DNA from: Candidatus Nitrospinota bacterium M3_3B_026
Lineage (GTDB): Bacteria; Nitrospinota_A; UBA7883; JBPRGF01
Direction: 5' to 3'
Length of the DNA stretch: 64,000 bases
NCBI GenBank assembly: GCA_051418015.1
Contig: JBPRGF010000009.1
Coordinates: forward strand, 1 to 64,000
Part shown: positions 46,427-54,146 of the stretch, in pieces
Layout: each line of letters starts with the position of its first letter
How positions within the stretch are numbered: position 1 is the stretch's first letter
Translations under genes and position numbers: made by a program
Notes under the pieces: model-generated
What the model was told of the DNA's origin: nothing
The model's input: the letters and a program-made list of their open reading frames with translations, nothing else
Database searches by the model: none

Positions 46427-46930
46427 TTATTCCCCGAAAGCCGTCACTTTCGCCGTGAACTTTCCGAGTTCGTCCCGGTTTCGCAGGGTAGTCTCCTCGG
46501 CCATCGTGGCGCGGGGGAGCATCTCCCGTATCGTCCGCGTGAAAAAGCCCGCGCTGGAGCGGCCTAGAACGGAACCGTCGCGGCGGCAAAGCGCGGCGCT
46601 GCTCAGGGCGCAGGAGGGCGACCCGCTTTTCAGGACGAGGCCGCCTATCCCGCGCTCCGCGAACTCCTCGGCGGCTGCCCTGGCGTGGCTGCTCATCATC
46701 TCCGTGCAGTCCTTTCCGGTCAGCGCGCCGATGAGCCTTGTTCCTTCGCTGTCCTCCACGAGGTTTACGGGCTCCCTTGGGACGCCCATGCCCGCGTCCA
46801 CCTCGGGGCAGAAGGGGACGAGTTCAAAACGTCTCCGCAACGCGTCGATAAGGGCTGGCTCGGCCTTATCTCCGCCGTCGTGGCGGACCTTGTCGCCCAG
46901 CAGACAGCGGCTCACGCCGACGGGGCGCAT
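46427..46930 (-). CDS. DUF523-family protein (TudS-like 2-thiouracil desulfurase family)
   Basis: VGVSRCLLGDKVRHDGG N-terminus typical of DUF523/YbbK proteins. Confidence 0.5.
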   Translation of the reverse strand: MRPVGVSRCLLGDKVRHDGGDKAEPALIDALRRRFELVPFCPEVDAGMGVPREPVNLVEDSEGTRLIGALTGKDCTEMMSSHARAAAEEFAERGIGGLVLKSGSPSCALSSAALCRRDGSVLGRSSAGFFTRTIREMLPRATMAEETTLRNRDELGKFTAKVTAFGE

Positions 46931-47421
46931 TCGGACTCATCGCCCCCGGCTTTCGATATCCCGTGGAGCGCGGCCTCGAAGACGGCCTCGATGTTCTCCA
47001 CGGCGGCCCTGGGGCTTCCGGGAAGGTTTATTATCATCACTTTTCCCCGCAGGCCCGCGAGCCCGCGGGACAGGACGGCGTTAGATGACTTCGCCAGGGA
47101 GGCCGCGCGCATGGCCTCCGGTATGCCGGGGATCGGTCTGTCCAGCAGGGGCCTTGTGGCCTCGGGGGTGACGTCCCGGGGCGACACACCCGTGCCGCCA
47201 GCCGTCAGCAGCAGGTCGACTTCGCCGGAGTCGGCCCATTCGCGCATCGTCTCCCGGATTGCCTCCTCATCGTCGGGGACAACGGCGAACCTGCCGAGGG
47301 TCAGGCCCTGTTTTTCAAGGAACGAGCGCATGGCCTTTTCCACCCTGTCCTCGCGCTCGCCGCGGCTTGCCCTGTCACTCGCCACCAGCAGAGCAGTGGA
47401 GATTTTTCCTGGCGCGCTCAA
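46912..47421 (-). CDS. mogA: Molybdenum cofactor biosynthesis protein MogA/MoaB
   Basis: ISTALLVASDRASRGEREDR...LLLTAGGTGVSPRDVTPEA signature. Confidence 0.85.
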   Translation of the reverse strand: MSAPGKISTALLVASDRASRGEREDRVEKAMRSFLEKQGLTLGRFAVVPDDEEAIRETMREWADSGEVDLLLTAGGTGVSPRDVTPEATRPLLDRPIPGIPEAMRAASLAKSSNAVLSRGLAGLRGKVMIINLPGSPRAAVENIEAVFEAALHGISKAGGDESECAPSA

Positions 47422-47425
47422 GGCT

Positions 47426-48628
47426 TCAGGAGCCGGGAGGGGTGAACAGCACGTCGTCGTTCGGAAGGAAGACGTCCGGGCCGGTGGAGTAGAGCGCGAC
47501 TTCTCCGTCGCTTTTTTCGAACCTGTAAGGGTTGTTCCAGGGATCCAGGAGGTCCGGTTGGCGGATGATTCCAGCTTTGGCGAGCTGGTCCAGACTTTCG
47601 GGCAGTCCGCCGCGCAGGACGTTATATATTTCGAGCCCCCTTGCTATTTTCTTGAGGCCGCCCCTCGCCTGAATGGCGTTCACCCGCGACATGCCGCTCT
47701 TTTGCGCCTCGATGAGCTCCGGCCACCTGGCCATCTGCCAGTACAGCCCGCCCACCACCACCGCAAGCAGCGCGGCGGTGATGACAAGGCGCATCGTGAG
47801 CCCGGCGCGGTCCGCTGTCTTCGTTTCCTCTTTTTTCTTTTTGGCGGGTTTTATTATCCCGAGTTCCAGGAGGCTTTTGATCGCCTCCAGCGACTCAAAA
47901 CTCCCCTGCCGGGCGGAGTCCAGCGTCTCCCGGATGCTTTTGCCCTGGCCGATGACGGAGAGGACGGCGACCTGCTGGTCCGAGAGCGTGACGCCCCGGG
48001 CGCTCAATATGTCGTACTCCAAAGACGAGCGGAAATCCCCTTGCGCGTTCTCCCGCGGCTTGGCGGCCAGCGAGTCGTCCTCCTCTTCCTCGCCGATTAT
48101 GTTTTTCACGATGAACGTGTCGAAAGGGGGGAGCCCCGCCGCCACCCTGGGCCACTCGTCGGCGACCCTGCACCCCTCCATCAGCAGCGCGTCCACGTCC
48201 ATCGGCGTCATCACCTTGTTGTTGTACTTGACGCCCTTCATGGGGGCGAACTCGTATTCCCCCTTTTTCCAGCGCAGGGCATAGTAGACGTTGTCGATCA
48301 CCTGGCGGCGGATGAACTCCACCAGGGTCTGCGTGCTGATCCTTCTTGCCAGGATGTCCCAGTACGGCTTGAGCTTGTCCTCGTGCTCCTTTTTGACCGC
48401 GCTCCACTCCTGCGGGGATATGACGGCGTTGGAGACCAGGCTTCCCCCCAGCCTGGTTTCGTCCCTTTGCGGGGAGCTTTCGGCGTATATGATGGCGCCG
48501 TTGTCGAAGGTGATCCTGACCGTCTCGTCCTTTTCGGTCAGCGTCAGCCTGCCGGTTTTTCCCTCCAGCTTTATCATCTGGAGTATGTTCATGATGTTGA
48601 AGTCGTCGAGACTTCCCTTCAGCGCCAT
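47426..48628 (-). CDS. PATAN (DUF4388)-domain protein with single TM helix and C-terminal type II secretion GspG-like pseudopilin domain
   Basis: N-terminal MALKGSLDDFNIMNILQMIKLEGKTGRL (DUF4388/PATAN); TM helix LTMRLVITAALLAVVVGGLYW; C-terminal LLDPWNNPYRFEKSDGEVALYSTGPD resembles the GspG C-terminal motif; ATG 48628 overlaps the upstream stop (ATGA). Confidence 0.6.
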   Translation of the reverse strand: MALKGSLDDFNIMNILQMIKLEGKTGRLTLTEKDETVRITFDNGAIIYAESSPQRDETRLGGSLVSNAVISPQEWSAVKKEHEDKLKPYWDILARRISTQTLVEFIRRQVIDNVYYALRWKKGEYEFAPMKGVKYNNKVMTPMDVDALLMEGCRVADEWPRVAAGLPPFDTFIVKNIIGEEEEDDSLAAKPRENAQGDFRSSLEYDILSARGVTLSDQQVAVLSVIGQGKSIRETLDSARQGSFESLEAIKSLLELGIIKPAKKKKEETKTADRAGLTMRLVITAALLAVVVGGLYWQMARWPELIEAQKSGMSRVNAIQARGGLKKIARGLEIYNVLRGGLPESLDQLAKAGIIRQPDLLDPWNNPYRFEKSDGEVALYSTGPDVFLPNDDVLFTPPGS

Positions 48629-50538
48629 CAGTAGTAGTCCTTCATGAATACCGTGTTCATCGCCAGCCAGTACAGGGCCGCCGCCGCGAGGAAGACGGCG
48701 TGCTCCCTGGCGAGTTCGGCCGACAGGGGCGTTTTGTATATCACAAGCTCGGAGCCTATCATGGCCACGGCGTACACAAGCATAACGCTGGTTATGAAGG
48801 TGAGCGGAAAGCCAGCCGCGGCCTCGTGGTGGTAGGATCTTCCGACGCCGGGGAGGAGCCTGTCCAGCCATCCGGCGGTCCTGTTCCTTTTTCTCGCGAA
48901 CTGGCGCATTTCCTTTCGTTTCCTGTCCTTTTTCGCGCTCGACACTCCCCCCTTGCTGAGCGTGGCTGCCACGCACTGGTTGCACTTCGGGAAAGGCGAG
49001 GCCAGGCGTATGGGAGGACGGAAGGGCGTCCCGCAGGAGGCGCAGACCTGGTGGGAGAGCCTCCTGTTCCAGAAGAGGGCCGCCGCGCCGAGCAGCAGGA
49101 CGAAGCCGGCGGACGCCCACCTGTAGAGCTCTTTCGATACGGGGCCGAAATAGACGCTCCACAAAACATCGGCGACGGTCTCCGTTTCCCGCGCCATGGC
49201 CCGCTCATAGCGGGAGAGGTCCCTGGATGTTATGGGAAAGTCGGCCACCTTGTTCTCGCTCCCCTCGCCGGTCGCCTCCACGAGCTCCCTTGTCCTGTCC
49301 AGGTCTATGGACAGGGCGATGTTGTACTCTTTTTCGGAGTCCTTGGTCTTGGCCATGAAAGCGTAGGCGTTCGACAGGTTGAAATGCGCCTCCACCGACC
49401 GCGGGTCGGCCTTGATGGCTTTCTCGTACATGTCGACGGTCTTGTCATATTCCTTCGCCAGGAAGTAGACGTTGCCCTTGTTGACCAGCGCCCGGACGTT
49501 GTCCGGGTCTTTTTCGAGCATCATGTCGTAATACCCGATGGCGGCGTCCTTGTCCTGCCTGAGCTTGTTGAGGTAGCCGAGGGCGAAGGCGGCTATTCCG
49601 GCGTCGGGGTTTTTCTCAAGCTCTTGCTCCAGCCTTTTTTTGGTCGAGTAGTCCCAGGTGTTTTCGGAGAGCAGATAGAGCGCCCTGTATGTCTCCGCGT
49701 CCGGCAGGGTCACGCCCCGGGCCATGTAATGGAAGGTGTAGGGGCCGGAGAAGAGGAACAGGACGAAAAGCGCGACCACTGCCTTCCCCCCCGTCTTGAG
49801 GTACGGCCACAGGAACAGCGGGATGGCCAGCAGGAAGACGAGCCATCCGCCCACCGCCAGCGGGACCAGCAGGACGAGCGCTCCCATCACGGCCTTCCAC
49901 GCCCCCTCGGGATGGGTGGGGATGAAATCGGTGATGTCCGACAGCAGGGCCCTGTAGTTCTTCGCCGCGCAGGCCAGAAAGGTGAGCAGGAAGGCCACCA
50001 GCAATGCCATGTATGCGTATCTGGCGGCGGCGGCTATGAACTTGCCGCGCTGTATCCTGTTCGAGAAAAGCGCCCTCACCCCGGCCGCGGCCTGGGCCCC
50101 GGCGTTTTTGACGTCCGTCTTGTCGCGCGCGATGATGGCGTGGGCCAGGAAAAAACGCGCCCGGGGATGGTCCGGCGCGAACATGACGGCGTGCTGGGCG
50201 GCGGTCACCGCGGTTTCGCCGTCCCCTTTATCGAGGGTCTCCCTCCCGACAGCCAGGGCGATGTCCGCCAGCGGGAAAAGGTTCCTCGTTCCAAGGTCCC
50301 GCATGGTGTTGAGTATTCTGTTGGCCTCGTCGAAGGCGCCGAGCCCGTCCCCGTCCTCGATGCGCTCCATCCAGCCCGTGAAAGCCTCCCCGAGCTCCCC
50401 GTTGGAGGCCAGGTCCTCGATCTTGAGCGCCTCTGCGCGGAAATAGCGTCCGTCTTTTATCCGGTCCTCACCGGAGGCGGGCGCGGCTGCCGAGAAAAGA
50501 AGCGCGAGGAAGGCCGCGAGCGCGGCGGTCAGTTTCAT
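48628..50538 (-). CDS. TPR-repeat polytopic membrane protein with Cys4 zinc-ribbon
   Basis: Signal/TM MKLTAALAAFLALLFSAAAPASG; several TPR units (AHFNLSNAYAF, ALVNKGNVYFL); CASCG...CNQC; 4-5 TM helices; start uncertain (ATG 50538 versus GTG 50589). Confidence 0.6.
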   Translation of the reverse strand: MKLTAALAAFLALLFSAAAPASGEDRIKDGRYFRAEALKIEDLASNGELGEAFTGWMERIEDGDGLGAFDEANRILNTMRDLGTRNLFPLADIALAVGRETLDKGDGETAVTAAQHAVMFAPDHPRARFFLAHAIIARDKTDVKNAGAQAAAGVRALFSNRIQRGKFIAAAARYAYMALLVAFLLTFLACAAKNYRALLSDITDFIPTHPEGAWKAVMGALVLLVPLAVGGWLVFLLAIPLFLWPYLKTGGKAVVALFVLFLFSGPYTFHYMARGVTLPDAETYRALYLLSENTWDYSTKKRLEQELEKNPDAGIAAFALGYLNKLRQDKDAAIGYYDMMLEKDPDNVRALVNKGNVYFLAKEYDKTVDMYEKAIKADPRSVEAHFNLSNAYAFMAKTKDSEKEYNIALSIDLDRTRELVEATGEGSENKVADFPITSRDLSRYERAMARETETVADVLWSVYFGPVSKELYRWASAGFVLLLGAAALFWNRRLSHQVCASCGTPFRPPIRLASPFPKCNQCVAATLSKGGVSSAKKDRKRKEMRQFARKRNRTAGWLDRLLPGVGRSYHHEAAAGFPLTFITSVMLVYAVAMIGSELVIYKTPLSAELAREHAVFLAAAALYWLAMNTVFMKDYY

Positions 50539-50585
50539 TTGGCGGAACACTCGGCGGTCCGAAAGGTTCAGTCGCCCGTCGTCCT

Positions 50586-51086
50586 TCACTCCTTGAACAT
50601 GTCGTCCAGCCTGTCTTTGACCGAATCGGAGTAGCCGGACTCGAGCTGTTGTTTCTGCACCACCCTTTTCGATGCGATGTCGAATATCTTCTCCAGCTTG
50701 GCCGTCAATTCCTTGGAGTAGAGGTTCACCATGCCCACGGTCGTCTTCTCGTCAAAGACTATGGCGCTTATCGCCCTGTCGCCGACGAGGGATATGTGGA
50801 TGTGGTCTTTCTTTCCCTGGTGGAACATCACGGCGAACTCCGTCTCGCCAAGAAGGCGCGCGAGCTCCTTGGTGGCGGCGAAAGCCCCCGCCACGAGGGC
50901 CGAAAGCGACTGCGGATTAATGGTCTGCGTGCTGCCCTTCTGGGTGACCAGGTGGCCTTCCTTGTCTATCAGGAAGATGCACTTGGCGTTGGACAGCTTC
51001 AGGAACTCTTCCAGGAGTTTCTCTATCTGGTCGAAGTCCTCTTTGTAGTAGATAAGCCGCTTGTCCCGGAGCTGCTCGTCTTTCAT
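50586..51086 (-). CDS. Roadblock/LC7-domain protein (MglB-like)
   Basis: Roadblock fold signature CIFLIDKEGHLVTQKG...VGDRAISAIVFDEKTTVGMV. Confidence 0.7.
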   Translation of the reverse strand: MKDEQLRDKRLIYYKEDFDQIEKLLEEFLKLSNAKCIFLIDKEGHLVTQKGSTQTINPQSLSALVAGAFAATKELARLLGETEFAVMFHQGKKDHIHISLVGDRAISAIVFDEKTTVGMVNLYSKELTAKLEKIFDIASKRVVQKQQLESGYSDSVKDRLDDMFKE

Positions 51087-51104: not shown

Positions 51105-52331
51105 CTAAAGGTTCTCGCTGTAGATATCGATGTCGGCCTGCTCCCGGAGTTTGCCGAAAAACTCCTCCAGCAGGTTTCGCTTGCGCTGGCCCTTTATTCT
51201 GGCCACGACTTCGCTTTTCACGCTTTCCAGCGGCGCTCCGCCGAACCTGCCGGCGTTGGCCCCGTAAAAGCTTTTCACCTCGCCTTCCGTTATCCTGAGC
51301 CTCTCGTTGAGGTTCGGGATCACTTCCCTTATTATCTTGCCGATTATGACGTTCTTGGTGGCCTCGTTGCGCAGATTGTCGAGGCTGAGCTTTCTGCCGG
51401 AGAGGTATCTGTCCATCTGCTCCTGGGAGGTGAAACGTTTCGTGAAACTCTTTATCTGCGCCTCAACCTCGTCCCTGGGCGCCTGAATCTGACGCTTCTT
51501 GGCGTCTTGTAATAATAGAACATAGTTTATGAGCGACTCAAGAAGTTTCTTTTTCTCCTCCGGCGTGAACTTTTTGAAGTCCTCCACCTCGTCGCTCTTG
51601 GCGCCCAGCCGGTACTGAGCCTGGCAGTACTGGTTGAAATAGGACCTGGATATCCTGTCCGCGTTGACCTTGGCGACGTAGATCTCCTTTTTCTCCTCCG
51701 GCTTCTTCTCCTTTTTGGCTTTTTTCACCGCTTCGGCCACGGCTCCGGGCTCCTTGGCGTTTAGCCGGTCGAGTATCATCGAGGCGGTAAGCTTCAGCGT
51801 GCCGAGCACCCCCTCACCGGTGGCCGCGACGGCCTCGGTGGTGGGCGCGCCCATCCAGTTTATCTTCTCGTCCAGCTCCTCCACGCTCATGGCGGTGGGC
51901 AGGTCCCGCTTGTTCCACTGGATCACCAGGGGAATCTGCTCGATCTTCAGGCCGTACTCTTCCAGGTTTTTCTTGAGGTCCTCCAGCGACTCTATGTTCT
52001 CCGCCAGCTTGTCCTTCTGCGAGTCGGCGACGAATATGACGCCGTCCGCCCCCTGCAGGACGAGCTTGCGGGTGGAGGAGTAGTAGACCTGGCCGGGGAC
52101 GGTGTAGAGCTGGAACTTCGTGTTCATCCCCCGCACCTGGCCAAGGTCCAGGGGCAAAAAGTCGAAAAAGAGTGTCCTGTCGCCCTCGGTGGCTATGGAG
52201 GTCATCTCGCCCTTGCTCTGGTCAGGCACCTTGGTGTGGACCACCTCGAGGTTCGTCGTCTTCCCGCTCATGCCGGGACCGTAATACACCAGCTTGCAGG
52301 ATACCTCCCGCTTAGCGTAGTTTATCTGCAT
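51105..52331 (-). CDS. mglA: MglA-family Ras-like small GTPase with about 210-aa C-terminal extension
   Basis: N-terminal 195 aa align to MglA (YGPGMSGKTTNL P-loop, DFLPLDLGQVRGMNTKFQLYTVPGQVYY, IQWNKRDLP); the extension is Lys/Glu-rich and SurA-N/PpiD-like by motif resemblance only. Confidence 0.75.
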   Translation of the reverse strand: MQINYAKREVSCKLVYYGPGMSGKTTNLEVVHTKVPDQSKGEMTSIATEGDRTLFFDFLPLDLGQVRGMNTKFQLYTVPGQVYYSSTRKLVLQGADGVIFVADSQKDKLAENIESLEDLKKNLEEYGLKIEQIPLVIQWNKRDLPTAMSVEELDEKINWMGAPTTEAVAATGEGVLGTLKLTASMILDRLNAKEPGAVAEAVKKAKKEKKPEEKKEIYVAKVNADRISRSYFNQYCQAQYRLGAKSDEVEDFKKFTPEEKKKLLESLINYVLLLQDAKKRQIQAPRDEVEAQIKSFTKRFTSQEQMDRYLSGRKLSLDNLRNEATKNVIIGKIIREVIPNLNERLRITEGEVKSFYGANAGRFGGAPLESVKSEVVARIKGQRKRNLLEEFFGKLREQADIDIYSENL

Positions 52332-52368: not shown

Positions 52369-52731
52369 TCACACTTCGATCCGGCCGGTTTTCTTGATCT
52401 CGTTGGCGGCCTGGAAAAGCGCCACGTTCACCTTGCCCGGGTCGACTTCCAGCTCCGTGATGGCGATGAGCACGGATTTGCCGAGATCCACGACATAAAT
52501 CCGCTTCTGGTTAGACTGAATTATATACCGCGTGAATTCGTTGTGCCCCATGTTTTTGAGGGCGTTTTTTATGTTCTGGGCGATCTGCGACATGAAAGCC
52601 CCCAGCGTCTCGGCGGTCTCGGGATCGTCCAGGTTGGACTCTATGACCATCCCCTCCTTGGTTATTATCAGCGCGCCAAGCATGTAGTCGCTGTTGCAGA
52701 GTACCTTGAGAATAGACTTTAAGGTGTTCAC
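52369..52731 (-). CDS. Roadblock/LC7-domain protein (MglB-like)
   Basis: MLGALIITKEGMVIES...VLIAITELEVDPGKVN roadblock signature; 120 aa. Confidence 0.75.
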   Translation of the reverse strand: MNTLKSILKVLCNSDYMLGALIITKEGMVIESNLDDPETAETLGAFMSQIAQNIKNALKNMGHNEFTRYIIQSNQKRIYVVDLGKSVLIAITELEVDPGKVNVALFQAANEIKKTGRIEV

Positions 52732-52846: not shown

Positions 52847-53812
52847 TCAACCGGCCACCTCCTCCAGATAGCGTTGTATGCGTTTCTCCACCGCCGAAAG
52901 GTTCGCGTCGTTGTCCACGACCACGGCTATCGTGGCGTAGAACGCGTTGGCGATGATTATTGTGCCGATGGGGCTGACGAGGGTCCCCCTCTGGAAGCTG
53001 CCGTTGCCAAGCCTTCGCGTGGCGTTCATGGAGGTCTTGTAAAGGTTGAAGACGAACGAGGGTATGATGTTCTCGTCGAGCCCGGCCCTGTTTATGATCT
53101 TTATCGGCTGCCCGTTCCTGTCCAGCAGGAAAAGGGCGTTCAGACCTTCGAGCCTGCTGAATATCGTGAGCTTGGCGCTCATCGCCTCCTGCGCGTGCAG
53201 GTCCTCGGCCTCCTCCTCGCCGCCTATGATGACCTTCTCGTCCATGGCCGGGGCGGCGGCCCGGGGGGCTTTTTCCACCTCGGCGCGCAGCGCCTGGTCT
53301 ATTATGACCTCTCCGGCCCCCTCCTCACCAAGCTCCTCGGTCTCCCCCTCCTGCGTTTCCTCCTTCTTCACGGCCTCCTTCGCGGCGGCCTTCTCCTCCT
53401 TCTCCCTGACGATGTTCATCAGGGAGACGGCCCGCTCGTCGTCGGGGGCGGTCTCGAGAATGTCCGTCAACAGCGCCTTGGCGCGCTTTCTCGCGCCGGC
53501 CTTGAGGTATATCTGGCTGGAGAGCAGCTTGGCCAGGTAGTTCCCCGGGTCGAGCTTCAGCGTCTTCTCGAGGCTGCCCAGGGCCGCCTTCAGGTCGTCC
53601 GGCCTGCCCTTCTTGTTGTAGCGGGTGATGAAGGTCTCCGCCCTGGCCATATGGACGGCGCTGTTGTTCGGAAACCTGGAAAGCGCCTTCTCCAGCACGC
53701 TAAGGGCGAGGGCCGTCTCCCCCAGTTTCCTTAGCTGCTTGGCTATCCTCGCGTAAGCGATGGCGGCCGCCGGCTGGACGCTTTTGCCGGGGGGGCTCTC
53801 CTGTGCGGTCAT
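52847..53812 (-). CDS. TPR-repeat protein fused to C-terminal roadblock/LC7-like domain
   Basis: N-terminal TPRs (ALSVLEKALSRFPNNS...); C-terminal LFLLDRNGQPIKIINRAGL...GTIIIANAFYATIAVVVDND roadblock-like. Confidence 0.55.
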   Translation of the reverse strand: MTAQESPPGKSVQPAAAIAYARIAKQLRKLGETALALSVLEKALSRFPNNSAVHMARAETFITRYNKKGRPDDLKAALGSLEKTLKLDPGNYLAKLLSSQIYLKAGARKRAKALLTDILETAPDDERAVSLMNIVREKEEKAAAKEAVKKEETQEGETEELGEEGAGEVIIDQALRAEVEKAPRAAAPAMDEKVIIGGEEEAEDLHAQEAMSAKLTIFSRLEGLNALFLLDRNGQPIKIINRAGLDENIIPSFVFNLYKTSMNATRRLGNGSFQRGTLVSPIGTIIIANAFYATIAVVVDNDANLSAVEKRIQRYLEEVAG

Positions 53813-54146
53813 CTTATCCCGGGGTTATCGCGGAGTTCAAAAAAGTTCGCTCCCTTTGCGTGGAACAAGCCCGGCGGGCCATAAAAATCCTCTTGAAATC
53901 CAATAGTTATCCACGCATTACTTGACTGCCGTATTCTAGCTACGGGGGCGAAGCTTTGTCAAATACATTTAATTATCGTATAAGTTGCTTAAATGTTTGT
54001 AAATTTAAATGTACCGCGAAGGGATGGCGGAACGAAGAAAACACGCGCGCGAACCCGCGGGACGCTGGCCGAAAAGGCGTCTTTACATGGCCTGCGCAAT
54101 CTAATAGAGTAAAACACAAGGCTTGTTCTGAAAGGGGAAAAGAGAA

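Follow-up and report, generated by a model that had tools for sequence, protein, structure and literature searches.

Can a single protein connect a pilus or secretion machine to a polarity GTPase across the inner membrane? The question is raised by a gene in a 64,000-nucleotide stretch of DNA from Candidatus Nitrospinota bacterium M3_3B_026, referred to here as the window. The gene occupies 47426..48628 on the minus strand, an exact match to an ORF of 400 aa plus stop with the N-terminus MALKGSLDDF, and encodes a PATAN-TM-pseudopilin-like protein (hereafter the target). We take its ATG start to be correct: none of 38 homologues departs from M1-A2-L3, AAGGA stands before the ATG, and the ATG shares 1 nt with the TGA stop of the preceding gene. 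A longer ORF with a GTG start (47426..49162, 578 aa) was rejected, since it runs into the gene upstream and MALxGSL begins every homologue.

From N- to C-terminus the target carries a PATAN/DUF4388 domain, a second, small domain made of helices, a single transmembrane (TM) helix, and a GspG-related domain of ~100 aa, four parts in all. A scan against NCBIfam assigned no family to it, and public annotation of proteins in its family reads only 'DUF4388' and occasionally 'ComGC'. Our literature search found no account of a PATAN/DUF4388-pseudopilin fusion, and nothing on MXAN_3211, MXAN_4965 or SgnC having a PATAN-TM-pseudopilin architecture. MXAN_3211 and MXAN_4965, which co-occur with SgmX, are candidate members of the family in Myxococcus xanthus.

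Domain architecture, topology and pilin-like features

We first consider the cytoplasmic part. A PATAN domain at the N-terminus had been proposed from the letters of the sequence, and the search against Pfam PF14332 (DUF4388) bore this out (E=1.6e-26, 93.2 bits vs a cutoff of 25), with residues 4-159 aligned to model positions 1-121 of 122. The domain as a whole covers residues 1-175 (48104..48628, minus strand). The match spans 156 target residues against a 122-position model, and the AlphaFold prediction places a four-helix insertion at residues 53-118 between β-strands (pLDDT about 90; helices 53-66, 72-85, 89-93 and 99-118). Model and Pfam span together indicate that the optional 'alpha-clip' insertion of PATAN/DUF4388 proteins is present. 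With the N-terminal 265 aa as query, phmmer recovered no solved PATAN relative from the PDB. Downstream, residues 200-262 (47843..48031, minus strand) form a small winged-helix-like cytoplasmic domain without a Pfam match, modeled as four helices and a strand (pLDDT 86-92), in which G242, F244 and L253 are almost invariant over the wide family.

A single hydrophobic segment follows at residues 277-299 (47732..47800, minus strand), as the original prediction had it, and is the N-terminal part of a continuous 64-residue helix (276-339). Within 15 residues of this segment, K+R number 6 on the N side vs 2 on the C side, and the family means show the same positive-inside bias (3.55 vs 1.84). The sequence-predicted topology is in keeping with the proposal that the two end domains lie on opposite sides of the membrane. 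The TM segment itself is poorly conserved in sequence across relatives.

The remaining residues, 300-400 (47429..47731, minus strand), make up a GspG-like periplasmic head, comprising α1C, an α-β loop, the motif DPWNNPY (362-368), three β-strands and a GPD...DD loop (383-392); the C-terminal block LLDPWNNPYRFEKSDGEVALYSTGPD corresponds to residues 360-385. Two AlphaFold models (pLDDT 83.6 and 84.4) show the continuous helix 276-339 followed by a small β-sheet, the 'lollipop' shape of pilins, in which a hydrophobic α1N runs into an amphipathic α1C packed on the sheet. Profile evidence for kinship with GspG was borderline for the target alone. The full-length protein scored 18.4 bits against Pfam T2SSG (PF08334), under the cutoff of 21, and its C-terminal 136 aa alone scored 22.1 bits. 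Among relatives, T2SSG matched individually at E<=0.01 in 29/30 Nitrospinota sequences (best 7.4e-9) and 31/38 distant ones (best 1.1e-10), a frequency that lies, by these profile scores, far above chance expectation. The TM helix lies outside the matched stretch (318-385), so hydrophobic bias does not account for the matches. In two profile searches of the PDB, the top 4 and the top 8 matches, respectively, were GspG/EpsG. The likeness to GspG/PulG that had been proposed for the C-terminus therefore stands at family level, where homology of the head to GspG appears well supported, but the full-length target falls below the Pfam cutoff. In most of the distant relatives the head is truncated and ends after the second β-strand. 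Foldseek with the target model returned an EpsG match in the PDB, but at E-values >0.5; with the full-length model, PilM, actin and MreB were rejected as fold relatives (probability <=0.2, TM about 0.09), being at noise level.

The features by which pilins are processed are missing. Instead of a short leader, about 276-280 residues forming two folded domains stand before the TM segment (family median 280). A G-x4-E motif at the start of the TM segment was found in 0/248 relatives, and N_methyl (PF07963) gave no match in the target at E<=0.1. A glycine lies just before the hydrophobic segment in about 26/35 Nitrospinota sequences; about 9/35 have E, K, S or L there instead. Judged by these sequence features, the target is not a true pilin and cannot be processed as one; with its long cytoplasmic N-terminus, no Gly-1/Glu5 and no N_methyl match, it should be non-processable and non-polymerizable in the canonical sense. 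Entry into a filament in the way pilins enter it is predicted to be impossible unless the N-terminal 276 residues are removed.

Operon context and conservation

The target had been placed at the head of an MglA/roadblock cluster. The minus-strand orientation reverses this order: the target is the last of six genes, preceded by a TPR-roadblock protein, a roadblock protein, an MglA-SurA_N-like fusion, MglB and a TPR polytopic membrane protein. A putative promoter, TTGACA-18-TAGAAT, lies upstream of gene 1 (53933..53962, minus strand) and was recognized by an 11/12 consensus match only. We found no convincing minus-strand terminator between it and position 47426.

Gene 1 (52847..53812, minus strand; 321 aa) encodes a TPR protein (TPR_19, E=6e-15) with a roadblock-like C-terminal region, where residues 217-318 gave a weak MAPKK1_Int/roadblock-type match (E=7e-4), and is syntenic in all complete loci. 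Gene 2 (52369..52731, minus strand; 120 aa), likewise syntenic, encodes a small Roadblock/LC7 protein (Robl_LC7, E=1.1e-11). Gene 3 (51105..52331, minus strand; 408 aa) encodes an MglA GTPase fused to a SurA_N_3-like domain. Its residues 3-191 aligned to Myxococcus xanthus MglA (5ymx) with E=3.6e-69, retaining DRTLFFDF and YTVPGQV, which hold the intrinsic Arg finger and the TVPGQ switch II. A C-terminal extension of ~215 aa matched SurA_N_3 at residues 215-333 (E=5e-12), so that gene 3 does not encode a single-domain MglA of about 195 aa; the full 408-aa form is kept in 15/15 loci. Gene 4 (50586..51086, minus strand; 166 aa), starting 18 nt after mglA, encodes MglB, a roadblock-type GAP. Its residues 10-166 aligned to M. 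xanthus MglB (6izw_B) with E=1.2e-31, and it matched NCBIfam NF052242 with E=1.5e-28 at a score of 99.9, under the equivalog cutoff of 200. By these alignments genes 3 and 4 are genuine MglA and MglB, and with their retention in 15 loci the proposed proximity of MglA to the target holds.

Gene 5 (48628..50589, minus strand; 653 aa) encodes a polytopic membrane protein with Pfam TPR matches and about 6-7 hydrophobic segments. Its loop 507-598 is basic (19 K+R vs 4 D+E) and carries a CxxC...CxxC motif that is conserved in 18/18 partner ORFs recovered. NCBIfam identities of PilW, Tgl and GltE were rejected for this protein, as they reflect generic TPR similarity far under the cutoffs. Gene 5 shares 4 nt with gene 4 and 1 nt with the target gene, overlaps that suggest translational coupling. 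This upstream protein, the universal partner of the target, had been missed in the original prediction.

We next determined how far this arrangement extends. The distribution of the PATAN-TM-pseudopilin architecture was assessed by sequence. The target family comprises 544 clusters at E<=1e-30 (50% identity clustering), and >1,700 clusters at 90% identity were found around a Myxococcota query; it includes cultured Myxococcota, with orthologues in Stigmatella and Archangium, and Hyalangium also carries it. The six-gene operon is kept in 15 Nitrospinota-like loci, namely 13 genome loci together with the loci L018 and L021 (33-35% identity). Beyond this group, conservation is limited to the pairing with the TPR membrane protein: a gene 5 homologue immediately precedes the PATAN gene in Myxococcota, in Fischerbacteria and in 37/48 metagenome loci. 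MglA/MglB neighbours were found neither at 80 metagenomic loci of distant family members nor at the Myxococcota loci, where the target gene is flanked by housekeeping genes such as phoH, rpsT and mazG. MglA control of the target would therefore be lineage-specific at best.

Genes for type IV pilus (T4P) or type II secretion system (T2SS) components were sought in several ways. A scan of 18 window proteins to both sides of the cluster revealed none, and the canonical pilin motif (G[FM..]T[LM].E followed by a hydrophobic stretch) was absent from 1.1 Mb covering the window and 101 related loci. A tblastn search for T2SSE with one seed in 88 loci (L014-L101) recovered only the seed's own gene in L019, a T2SSE ATPase 6 kb from the target homologue on the opposite strand. 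A T2SSE-seed search near 80 distant family members gave a single match, located inside a PATAN gene. On type IV pili in Nitrospinota, our literature search yielded only an indirect remark that pilins are encoded in some Nitrospinae MAGs; pili and motility go unmentioned in a paper on the Nitrospinae genome. Elsewhere in the window, a low-GC stretch at 30.8-33.2 kb corresponded neither to rRNA nor to any other Rfam family.

A candidate membrane adaptor and the alternatives

From the domain content, the topology signals, the missing pilin-processing motifs and the conserved operon with its partner, we tentatively propose, at somewhat below an even chance, that the target is a bitopic inner-membrane adaptor and pilin mimic that docks on a type IV filament machine and, in Nitrospinota, is switched by MglA. 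PATAN and the small helical domain would reside in the cytoplasm and the GspG-like head in the periplasm, joined by one long helix that crosses the membrane in the manner of pilin α1. Because ~280 folded residues replace the cleavable leader and Gly-1/Glu5 are absent, such a pilin mimic would be retained in the membrane and could not polymerize. Its synthesis is probably coupled by translation to that of the TPR/zinc-ribbon polytopic membrane protein, with which it would probably form a complex. Its pilin-like helix and head may dock at pilin or pseudopilin sites, in either the inner-membrane pilin pool or the assembly platform; the type IV filament machine concerned would be encoded in another part of the genome. 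Docking would then put PATAN at the cytoplasmic face beside the PilB/GspE-type ATPase and the PilC/GspF platform, and MglA, MglB and the roadblock proteins, co-transcribed with the target in Nitrospinota, may toggle this connection at a chosen cell site. [quoted passage not shown] That MglA is physically linked to pilus machinery is a plausible hypothesis, based on domain homology and the operon of one lineage. A more specific version, in which the non-polymerizing mimic sits inside the assembly platform and presses PATAN and, by way of PATAN, the MglA/MglB switch onto the PilB/PilC motor, appears to us fairly unlikely.

Several other explanations merit consideration. The weightiest, which we judge somewhat unlikely, is a scaffold for envelope or polarity functions unrelated to pili, in which the GspG-like fold is simply a small domain for interaction or anchoring in the periplasm. 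The TPR polytopic protein and the PATAN-TM protein would then form a transmembrane landmark or signaling complex (for polarity, division, envelope biogenesis or gliding-type machinery) that Nitrospinota brought under MglA/MglB control. That the invariant partner is a TPR membrane protein and no pilus gene is in keeping with such a scaffold, as are flanks free of pilin or T2SS/T4P genes, the housekeeping neighbours in Myxococcota, the truncated head of most relatives, and the chaperone-like SurA_N domain on MglA, which suggests a non-canonical output. However, the only documented functional connections of both halves of the target are to type IV filament machines, as in the binding of PATAN to PilB/PilC, and the head resembles GspG in sequence (DPWGxPY, GPD..DD loop) and not merely in fold; moreover, pilus genes are often scattered over a genome, and little weight attaches to flanks that lack them. 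The same anatomy could also signal inward. Here the helix and head would pair with free inner-membrane pilins, and PATAN would pass their occupancy to MglA/MglB or other cytoplasmic partners, making the target a sensor of the pilin pool or filament state. The PilS kinase has been reported to sense PilA, and a membrane-retained, non-polymerizable pilin mimic would be suited to heterodimerize with pilins via α1; PATAN domains act as output or interaction modules of signaling proteins, and the structural evidence is shared with the adaptor explanation. We nonetheless consider a sensor distinctly unlikely, given that the TM segment is poorly conserved, unlike the highly conserved α1N of pilin-pilin contacts, and that no pilus genes lie nearby.

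The two remaining alternatives concern the nature of the head itself. The target might be a true pseudopilin with a giant leader, cut by the peptidase after the glycine in DRAG/LTMR to free PATAN and a polymerizable subunit. Cleavage by prepilin peptidase depends mainly on Gly-1, and the glycine found in most Nitrospinota sequences would fit, but its replacement in about a quarter of them, a +5 position that is never Glu in the 248 relatives (+4 is mostly Arg or Lys), the lack of an N_methyl match and a leader consisting of a 275-residue two-domain folded region, for which we know of no precedent, make such processing very improbable. Chance resemblance of a C-terminal region unrelated to pseudopilins might be read from the subthreshold full-length Pfam score and the poor Foldseek E-values, yet it is scarcely conceivable, being effectively refuted by the T2SSG matches in relatives together with PDB profile searches led by GspG/EpsG.

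Significance and comparison with known systems

In Myxococcus, work continues on how polarity regulators such as MglA physically make contact with the pilus machine in the membrane, and the players known there, SgmX, FrzS and SopA, are soluble adaptors. No regulatory domain other than PATAN has so far been shown to bind PilB and PilC, and the target family carries it at the cytoplasmic end of an anchor shaped like a pilin, which makes the family a testable candidate for this connection. The family also shows the pilin fold reused as a permanent membrane anchor, with cytoplasmic domains in place of the signal peptide. If the version with the mimic inside the assembly platform is true, the family would provide a dedicated transmembrane link from a Ras-like polarity GTPase to a pilus or secretion nanomachine. 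It would also represent an unrecognized class of pilin-fold proteins, 'inverted' in that their large N-terminal domains are cytoplasmic, conserved from Nitrospinota to Myxococcota. If the pilus link is wrong, the pairing with the TPR/zinc-ribbon membrane protein would still constitute an unstudied two-component membrane complex. Orthologues in the culturable Stigmatella and Archangium make genetic tests feasible.

The operon shares MglA, MglB and TPR proteins with the modules that pair MglA-MglB with TPR effectors (SgmX, FrzS and SopA in M. xanthus; MglA and Bd2492 in Bdellovibrio), and also contains extra roadblock proteins. In M. xanthus, MglA-GTP brings PilB to the pole via the TPR protein SgmX (PMC11580455). 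Unlike either of these modules, the Nitrospinota operon fuses MglA to a SurA_N-like domain and ends with two integral membrane proteins; no homologues of SgmX, FrzS, SopA or RomR were identified with it. PatA-type regulators (Synechocystis PixG, PixE, PilG and LsiR; Anabaena PatA) have in common with the target an N-terminal PATAN that contains inserted helices and leads into a small helical region, and their PATAN is an output module that binds PilB1 and PilC at the inner membrane. Whereas these regulators are soluble and end in a phosphorylation-controlled REC domain, the target lacks REC and is fixed to the membrane by its pilin-like module.

On the periplasmic side, GspG, EpsG and PulG (PF08334) have leaders of 6-8 residues, in contrast to the roughly 276 N-terminal cytoplasmic residues of the target, which also lacks Gly-1/Phe+1/Glu+5, N_methyl, a conserved TM sequence and gsp/pil genes alongside. 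GspL and PilM-PilN offer a topological analogy only, in that an ATPase-contacting cytoplasmic domain is connected through a single TM helix to a small periplasmic domain contacting (pseudo)pilins and platform partners; there is no kinship in sequence or fold, and the periplasmic domain of the target is pilin-like, not ferredoxin-like. In the modular pilins (Caulobacter CpaL; Streptococcus sanguinis PilB/PilC), as in the target, a pilin module is fused to a second functional module. That second module lies outside the cell, at the C-terminus, in proteins that keep their class III signal peptide, whereas the additional domains of the target are N-terminal and cytoplasmic and take the place of the signal peptide.

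Domain architecture and topology

The 400-aa protein encoded at 47426..48628 (-) matches, at 100% identity, a 'DUF4388 domain-containing protein' from the MAG 'Candidatus Nitrospinota bacterium M3_3B_026'. Its ATG shares one base with the stop codon (TGA) of the gene before it, and AAGGA stands ahead of the ATG; this start was retained, and a longer GTG-initiated ORF reaching 49162 rejected, because M1-A2-L3 is invariant in 38 homologues. Pfam places a PATAN domain (DUF4388, PF14332) at residues 4-159 (E = 1.6e-26), and a single hydrophobic segment spans residues 277-299. Since the protein lacks an N-terminal signal peptide and PATAN is, to our knowledge, cytoplasmic in all studied cases, the topology is N-in/C-out. 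The 15 residues flanking the transmembrane (TM) segment contain six K+R on the N side and two on the C side (family means 3.55 and 1.84).

In a full-length AlphaFold model (38-sequence alignment, pLDDT 83.6), the PATAN domain (1-175) contains an insertion of four helices (53-118). A disordered acidic linker leads from it to a small winged-helix-like helical domain (200-262), and next comes an unbroken helix (276-339), the first third of which forms the TM segment. The remainder consists of two short helices plus three beta-strands. A separate model of the C-terminal 136 aa (pLDDT 84.4) agrees with it, and as modelled the helix and small beta-sheet head take the 'lollipop' shape of a pilin. The original prediction was thus right about the structure and topology of the fusion. 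Foldseek searches with the full-length model also returned many PilM, actin and MreB chains (probability <=0.2, TM about 0.09); given this very low probability, kinship with them was treated as noise.

Pseudopilin likeness and pilin processing signals

The anticipated match to the T2SSG family (PF08334) depended on the query: the full-length protein gave 18.4 bits over residues 320-385, below the Pfam cutoff of 21, whereas the C-terminal 136 aa alone exceeded it at 22.1 bits. Searched singly, 29/30 Nitrospinota relatives matched T2SSG at E<=0.01 (best 7.4e-9), and so did 31 of 38 distant non-Nitrospinota relatives (best 1.1e-10). When a profile of the Nitrospinota C-termini was compared with all PDB sequences, the four best matches were chains of the pseudopilin GspG (2kep, 4e-5), with an alignment spanning the alpha1C stretch plus DPWxNxY...LYSxGPD...D; eight GspG/EpsG chains headed the corresponding list for the 38 distant relatives. 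In Foldseek, EpsG was the sole high-probability match (TM 0.55-0.56), with non-significant E-values. Because the T2SSG-matched region leaves out the TM helix, the match does not stem from hydrophobic composition. With four independent tests concurring, the pseudopilin likeness of the C-terminal domain is well supported at the level of the family, the window protein by itself being borderline; this bears out the PATAN-TM-pseudopilin observation, and a chance resemblance is essentially excluded. The similarity is sporadically visible in public annotation: among the relatives listed, seven carry a precomputed PF08334 match (P0009, P0010, P0019, P0022, P0037, P0357 and P0369), and JGI occasionally names members 'competence protein ComGC' (P0289, P0334 and P0357; Myxococcota), so automated pipelines sometimes detect it. 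Members are otherwise named only DUF4388.

Where pilins have a signal peptide, this protein has about 280 cytoplasmic residues. Two folded domains (about 276 residues) precede the TM helix, Pfam reports no N_methyl match in the protein, and among 248 full-length relatives not one begins its hydrophobic segment with G-x4-E. A Gly often stands just before the TM helix, but about 9/35 close relatives have another residue there, and among the close relatives a basic residue usually occupies position +4. The class III signal that defines pilins is therefore absent, and the protein should remain an uncleaved bitopic membrane protein, unable to join a filament. That it is nonetheless a genuine processed pilin has a negligible probability in our estimation.

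Genomic context and family distribution

Proposed as the head of an MglA/roadblock cluster, the gene is instead the tail of six tightly packed minus-strand genes (successive gaps 115, 37, 18, -4 and -1 nt); on this point the original interpretation, sound in structure and topology, did not hold. A strong promoter-like site (53962..53933, -) lies ahead of a TPR protein (52847..53812, -), a 120-aa roadblock protein (52369..52731, -), a 408-aa MglA fusion (51105..52331, -), MglB (-; E=1.2e-31 to M. xanthus MglB) and a 653-aa TPR polytopic membrane protein (48628..50589, -). The C-terminal ~100 residues of the first TPR protein give a weak roadblock-type match (MAPKK1_Int); if this counts, the operon would encode three roadblock-fold modules, alongside the 120-aa protein and MglB. 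MglA usually consists of a single domain and has about 195 aa. Here it retains DRTLFFDF and TVPGQ (E=3.6e-69 to M. xanthus MglA), and in its C-terminal extension there is a match (51333..51689, -) to the chaperone-like domain found at the N-terminus of SurA/PpiD (SurA_N_3, E=5e-12). With no TM segment in the fusion protein, this is a cytoplasmic chaperone-like module on the polarity GTPase.

The six-gene arrangement is kept in 13 Nitrospinota genome loci and in the two more distant metagenomic loci L018 and L021, where the orthologue of the PATAN protein is only 33-35% identical; the MglA-SurA_N_3 fusion is full length in all 13 and in L018 and L021. Usually downstream, and present in 10 of the Nitrospinota loci, is a mog-like molybdopterin-binding gene, followed here by a 2-thiouracil desulfurase-family gene (together 46427..47421, -). 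Because the mog-like gene begins 4 nt past the PATAN gene and the two downstream genes overlap by 19 nt, the operon may read through to unrelated housekeeping genes, onward to yceD, rpmF, plsX and fabH. Elsewhere in the window, GC content drops to 0.47-0.50 across a low-GC island (about 30800..33250, +), compared with 0.60-0.65 outside it. Three plus-strand ORFs of 223, 382 and 247 aa follow one another in the island, each with a hydrophobic segment at the N-terminus. Since no Rfam family matches the island, it is not an rRNA operon; it may have been acquired horizontally.

A full-length profile searched against 1.84 billion cluster representatives recovered 544 clusters at E<=1e-30. Of the best 150, nearly all have 360-445 aa and match from residue 1 to about 380, and so share the architecture; many distant members stop soon after PW..PY.Y....GY.LL.P, without the GPD..DD loop. 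Named members belong to Myxococcota (including cultured Stigmatella aurantiaca, S. erecta, several Archangium species, Hyalangium gracile and Vitiosangium), 'Deltaproteobacteria' MAGs and Ca. Fischerbacteria. In these lineages the gene is almost always preceded, on the same strand and with minimal gap, by a TPR polytopic protein homologous to that of the window (37/48 loci whose upstream sequence extends at least 2 kb), and the pair is probably translationally coupled. Over about 550 residues, the partner at locus L017 is 25% identical to that of the window (E=2e-30). The window's partner has a zinc-ribbon-like CxxC-(16-22)-CxxC motif (48973..49044, -) within a strongly basic loop (19 K+R vs 4 D+E), and the motif is kept in each of the 18 partner ORFs recovered, which span Nitrospinota, Myxococcota and Ca. 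Fischerbacteria; no Pfam family covers the partner's membrane part. Only in the Nitrospinota-centred subfamily is the gene co-transcribed with MglA, MglB and two further roadblock-domain proteins: MglA/MglB adjoin the gene in 0/28 metagenomic loci that extend at least 5.5 kb upstream of it, and in none of the Myxococcota and other lineages.

In a Ca. Fischerbacteria locus, a 609-aa T2SSE (PilB/GspE-type) ATPase (L019:2414-4243, -) lies 6 kb upstream of the TPR-PATAN pair. Its residues 61-127 match inside the PATAN gene of locus L089 (935-1132; tblastn 3e-7), which suggests a PATAN-like segment in the ATPase N-terminus, in line with the reported co-occurrence of DUF4388 and GspE_N.

A possible link to a type IV filament machine

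Together, these data describe a bitopic protein in which cytoplasmic PATAN and helical domains are joined by a pilin-like helix to a periplasmic GspG-like head. The pilin-mimicking helix and head could find their docking site in a type IV filament machine whose genes lie elsewhere in the genome, either among its pilins or within its assembly platform, bringing PATAN close to the motor; in Nitrospinota, the MglA/MglB switch would gate this connection. Taken jointly, these steps form a tentative reading, to which we give somewhat less than an even chance. Its main rival, a transmembrane scaffold unrelated to pili, draws support from the total absence of pilus genes from the neighbourhood (no pilus or secretion genes near the six-gene operon; no canonical pilin gene in 1.1 Mb, the window plus 101 loci) and from the housekeeping genes that surround the gene in Myxococcota. 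We consider a scaffold less likely than docking, and a sensor signalling inward with the same anatomy less likely still.

PATAN genes recur near mglA and mglB (PMC4316618), and the MglA effector SgmX co-occurs in M. xanthus with two uncharacterised PATAN proteins (PMC11580455). Both domains and the PATAN-MglA genomic association are already known; full-text literature searches found no description of a PATAN/DUF4388-pseudopilin fusion, which is new as far as could be established. In this fusion, a pilin-fold module has exchanged its signal peptide for a long cytoplasmic region, and the protein has a universal TPR membrane partner. The putative pilus-MglA link is plausible and lineage-restricted, and the proposed placement of PATAN near the motor would resemble GspL or PilM-PilN in topology.
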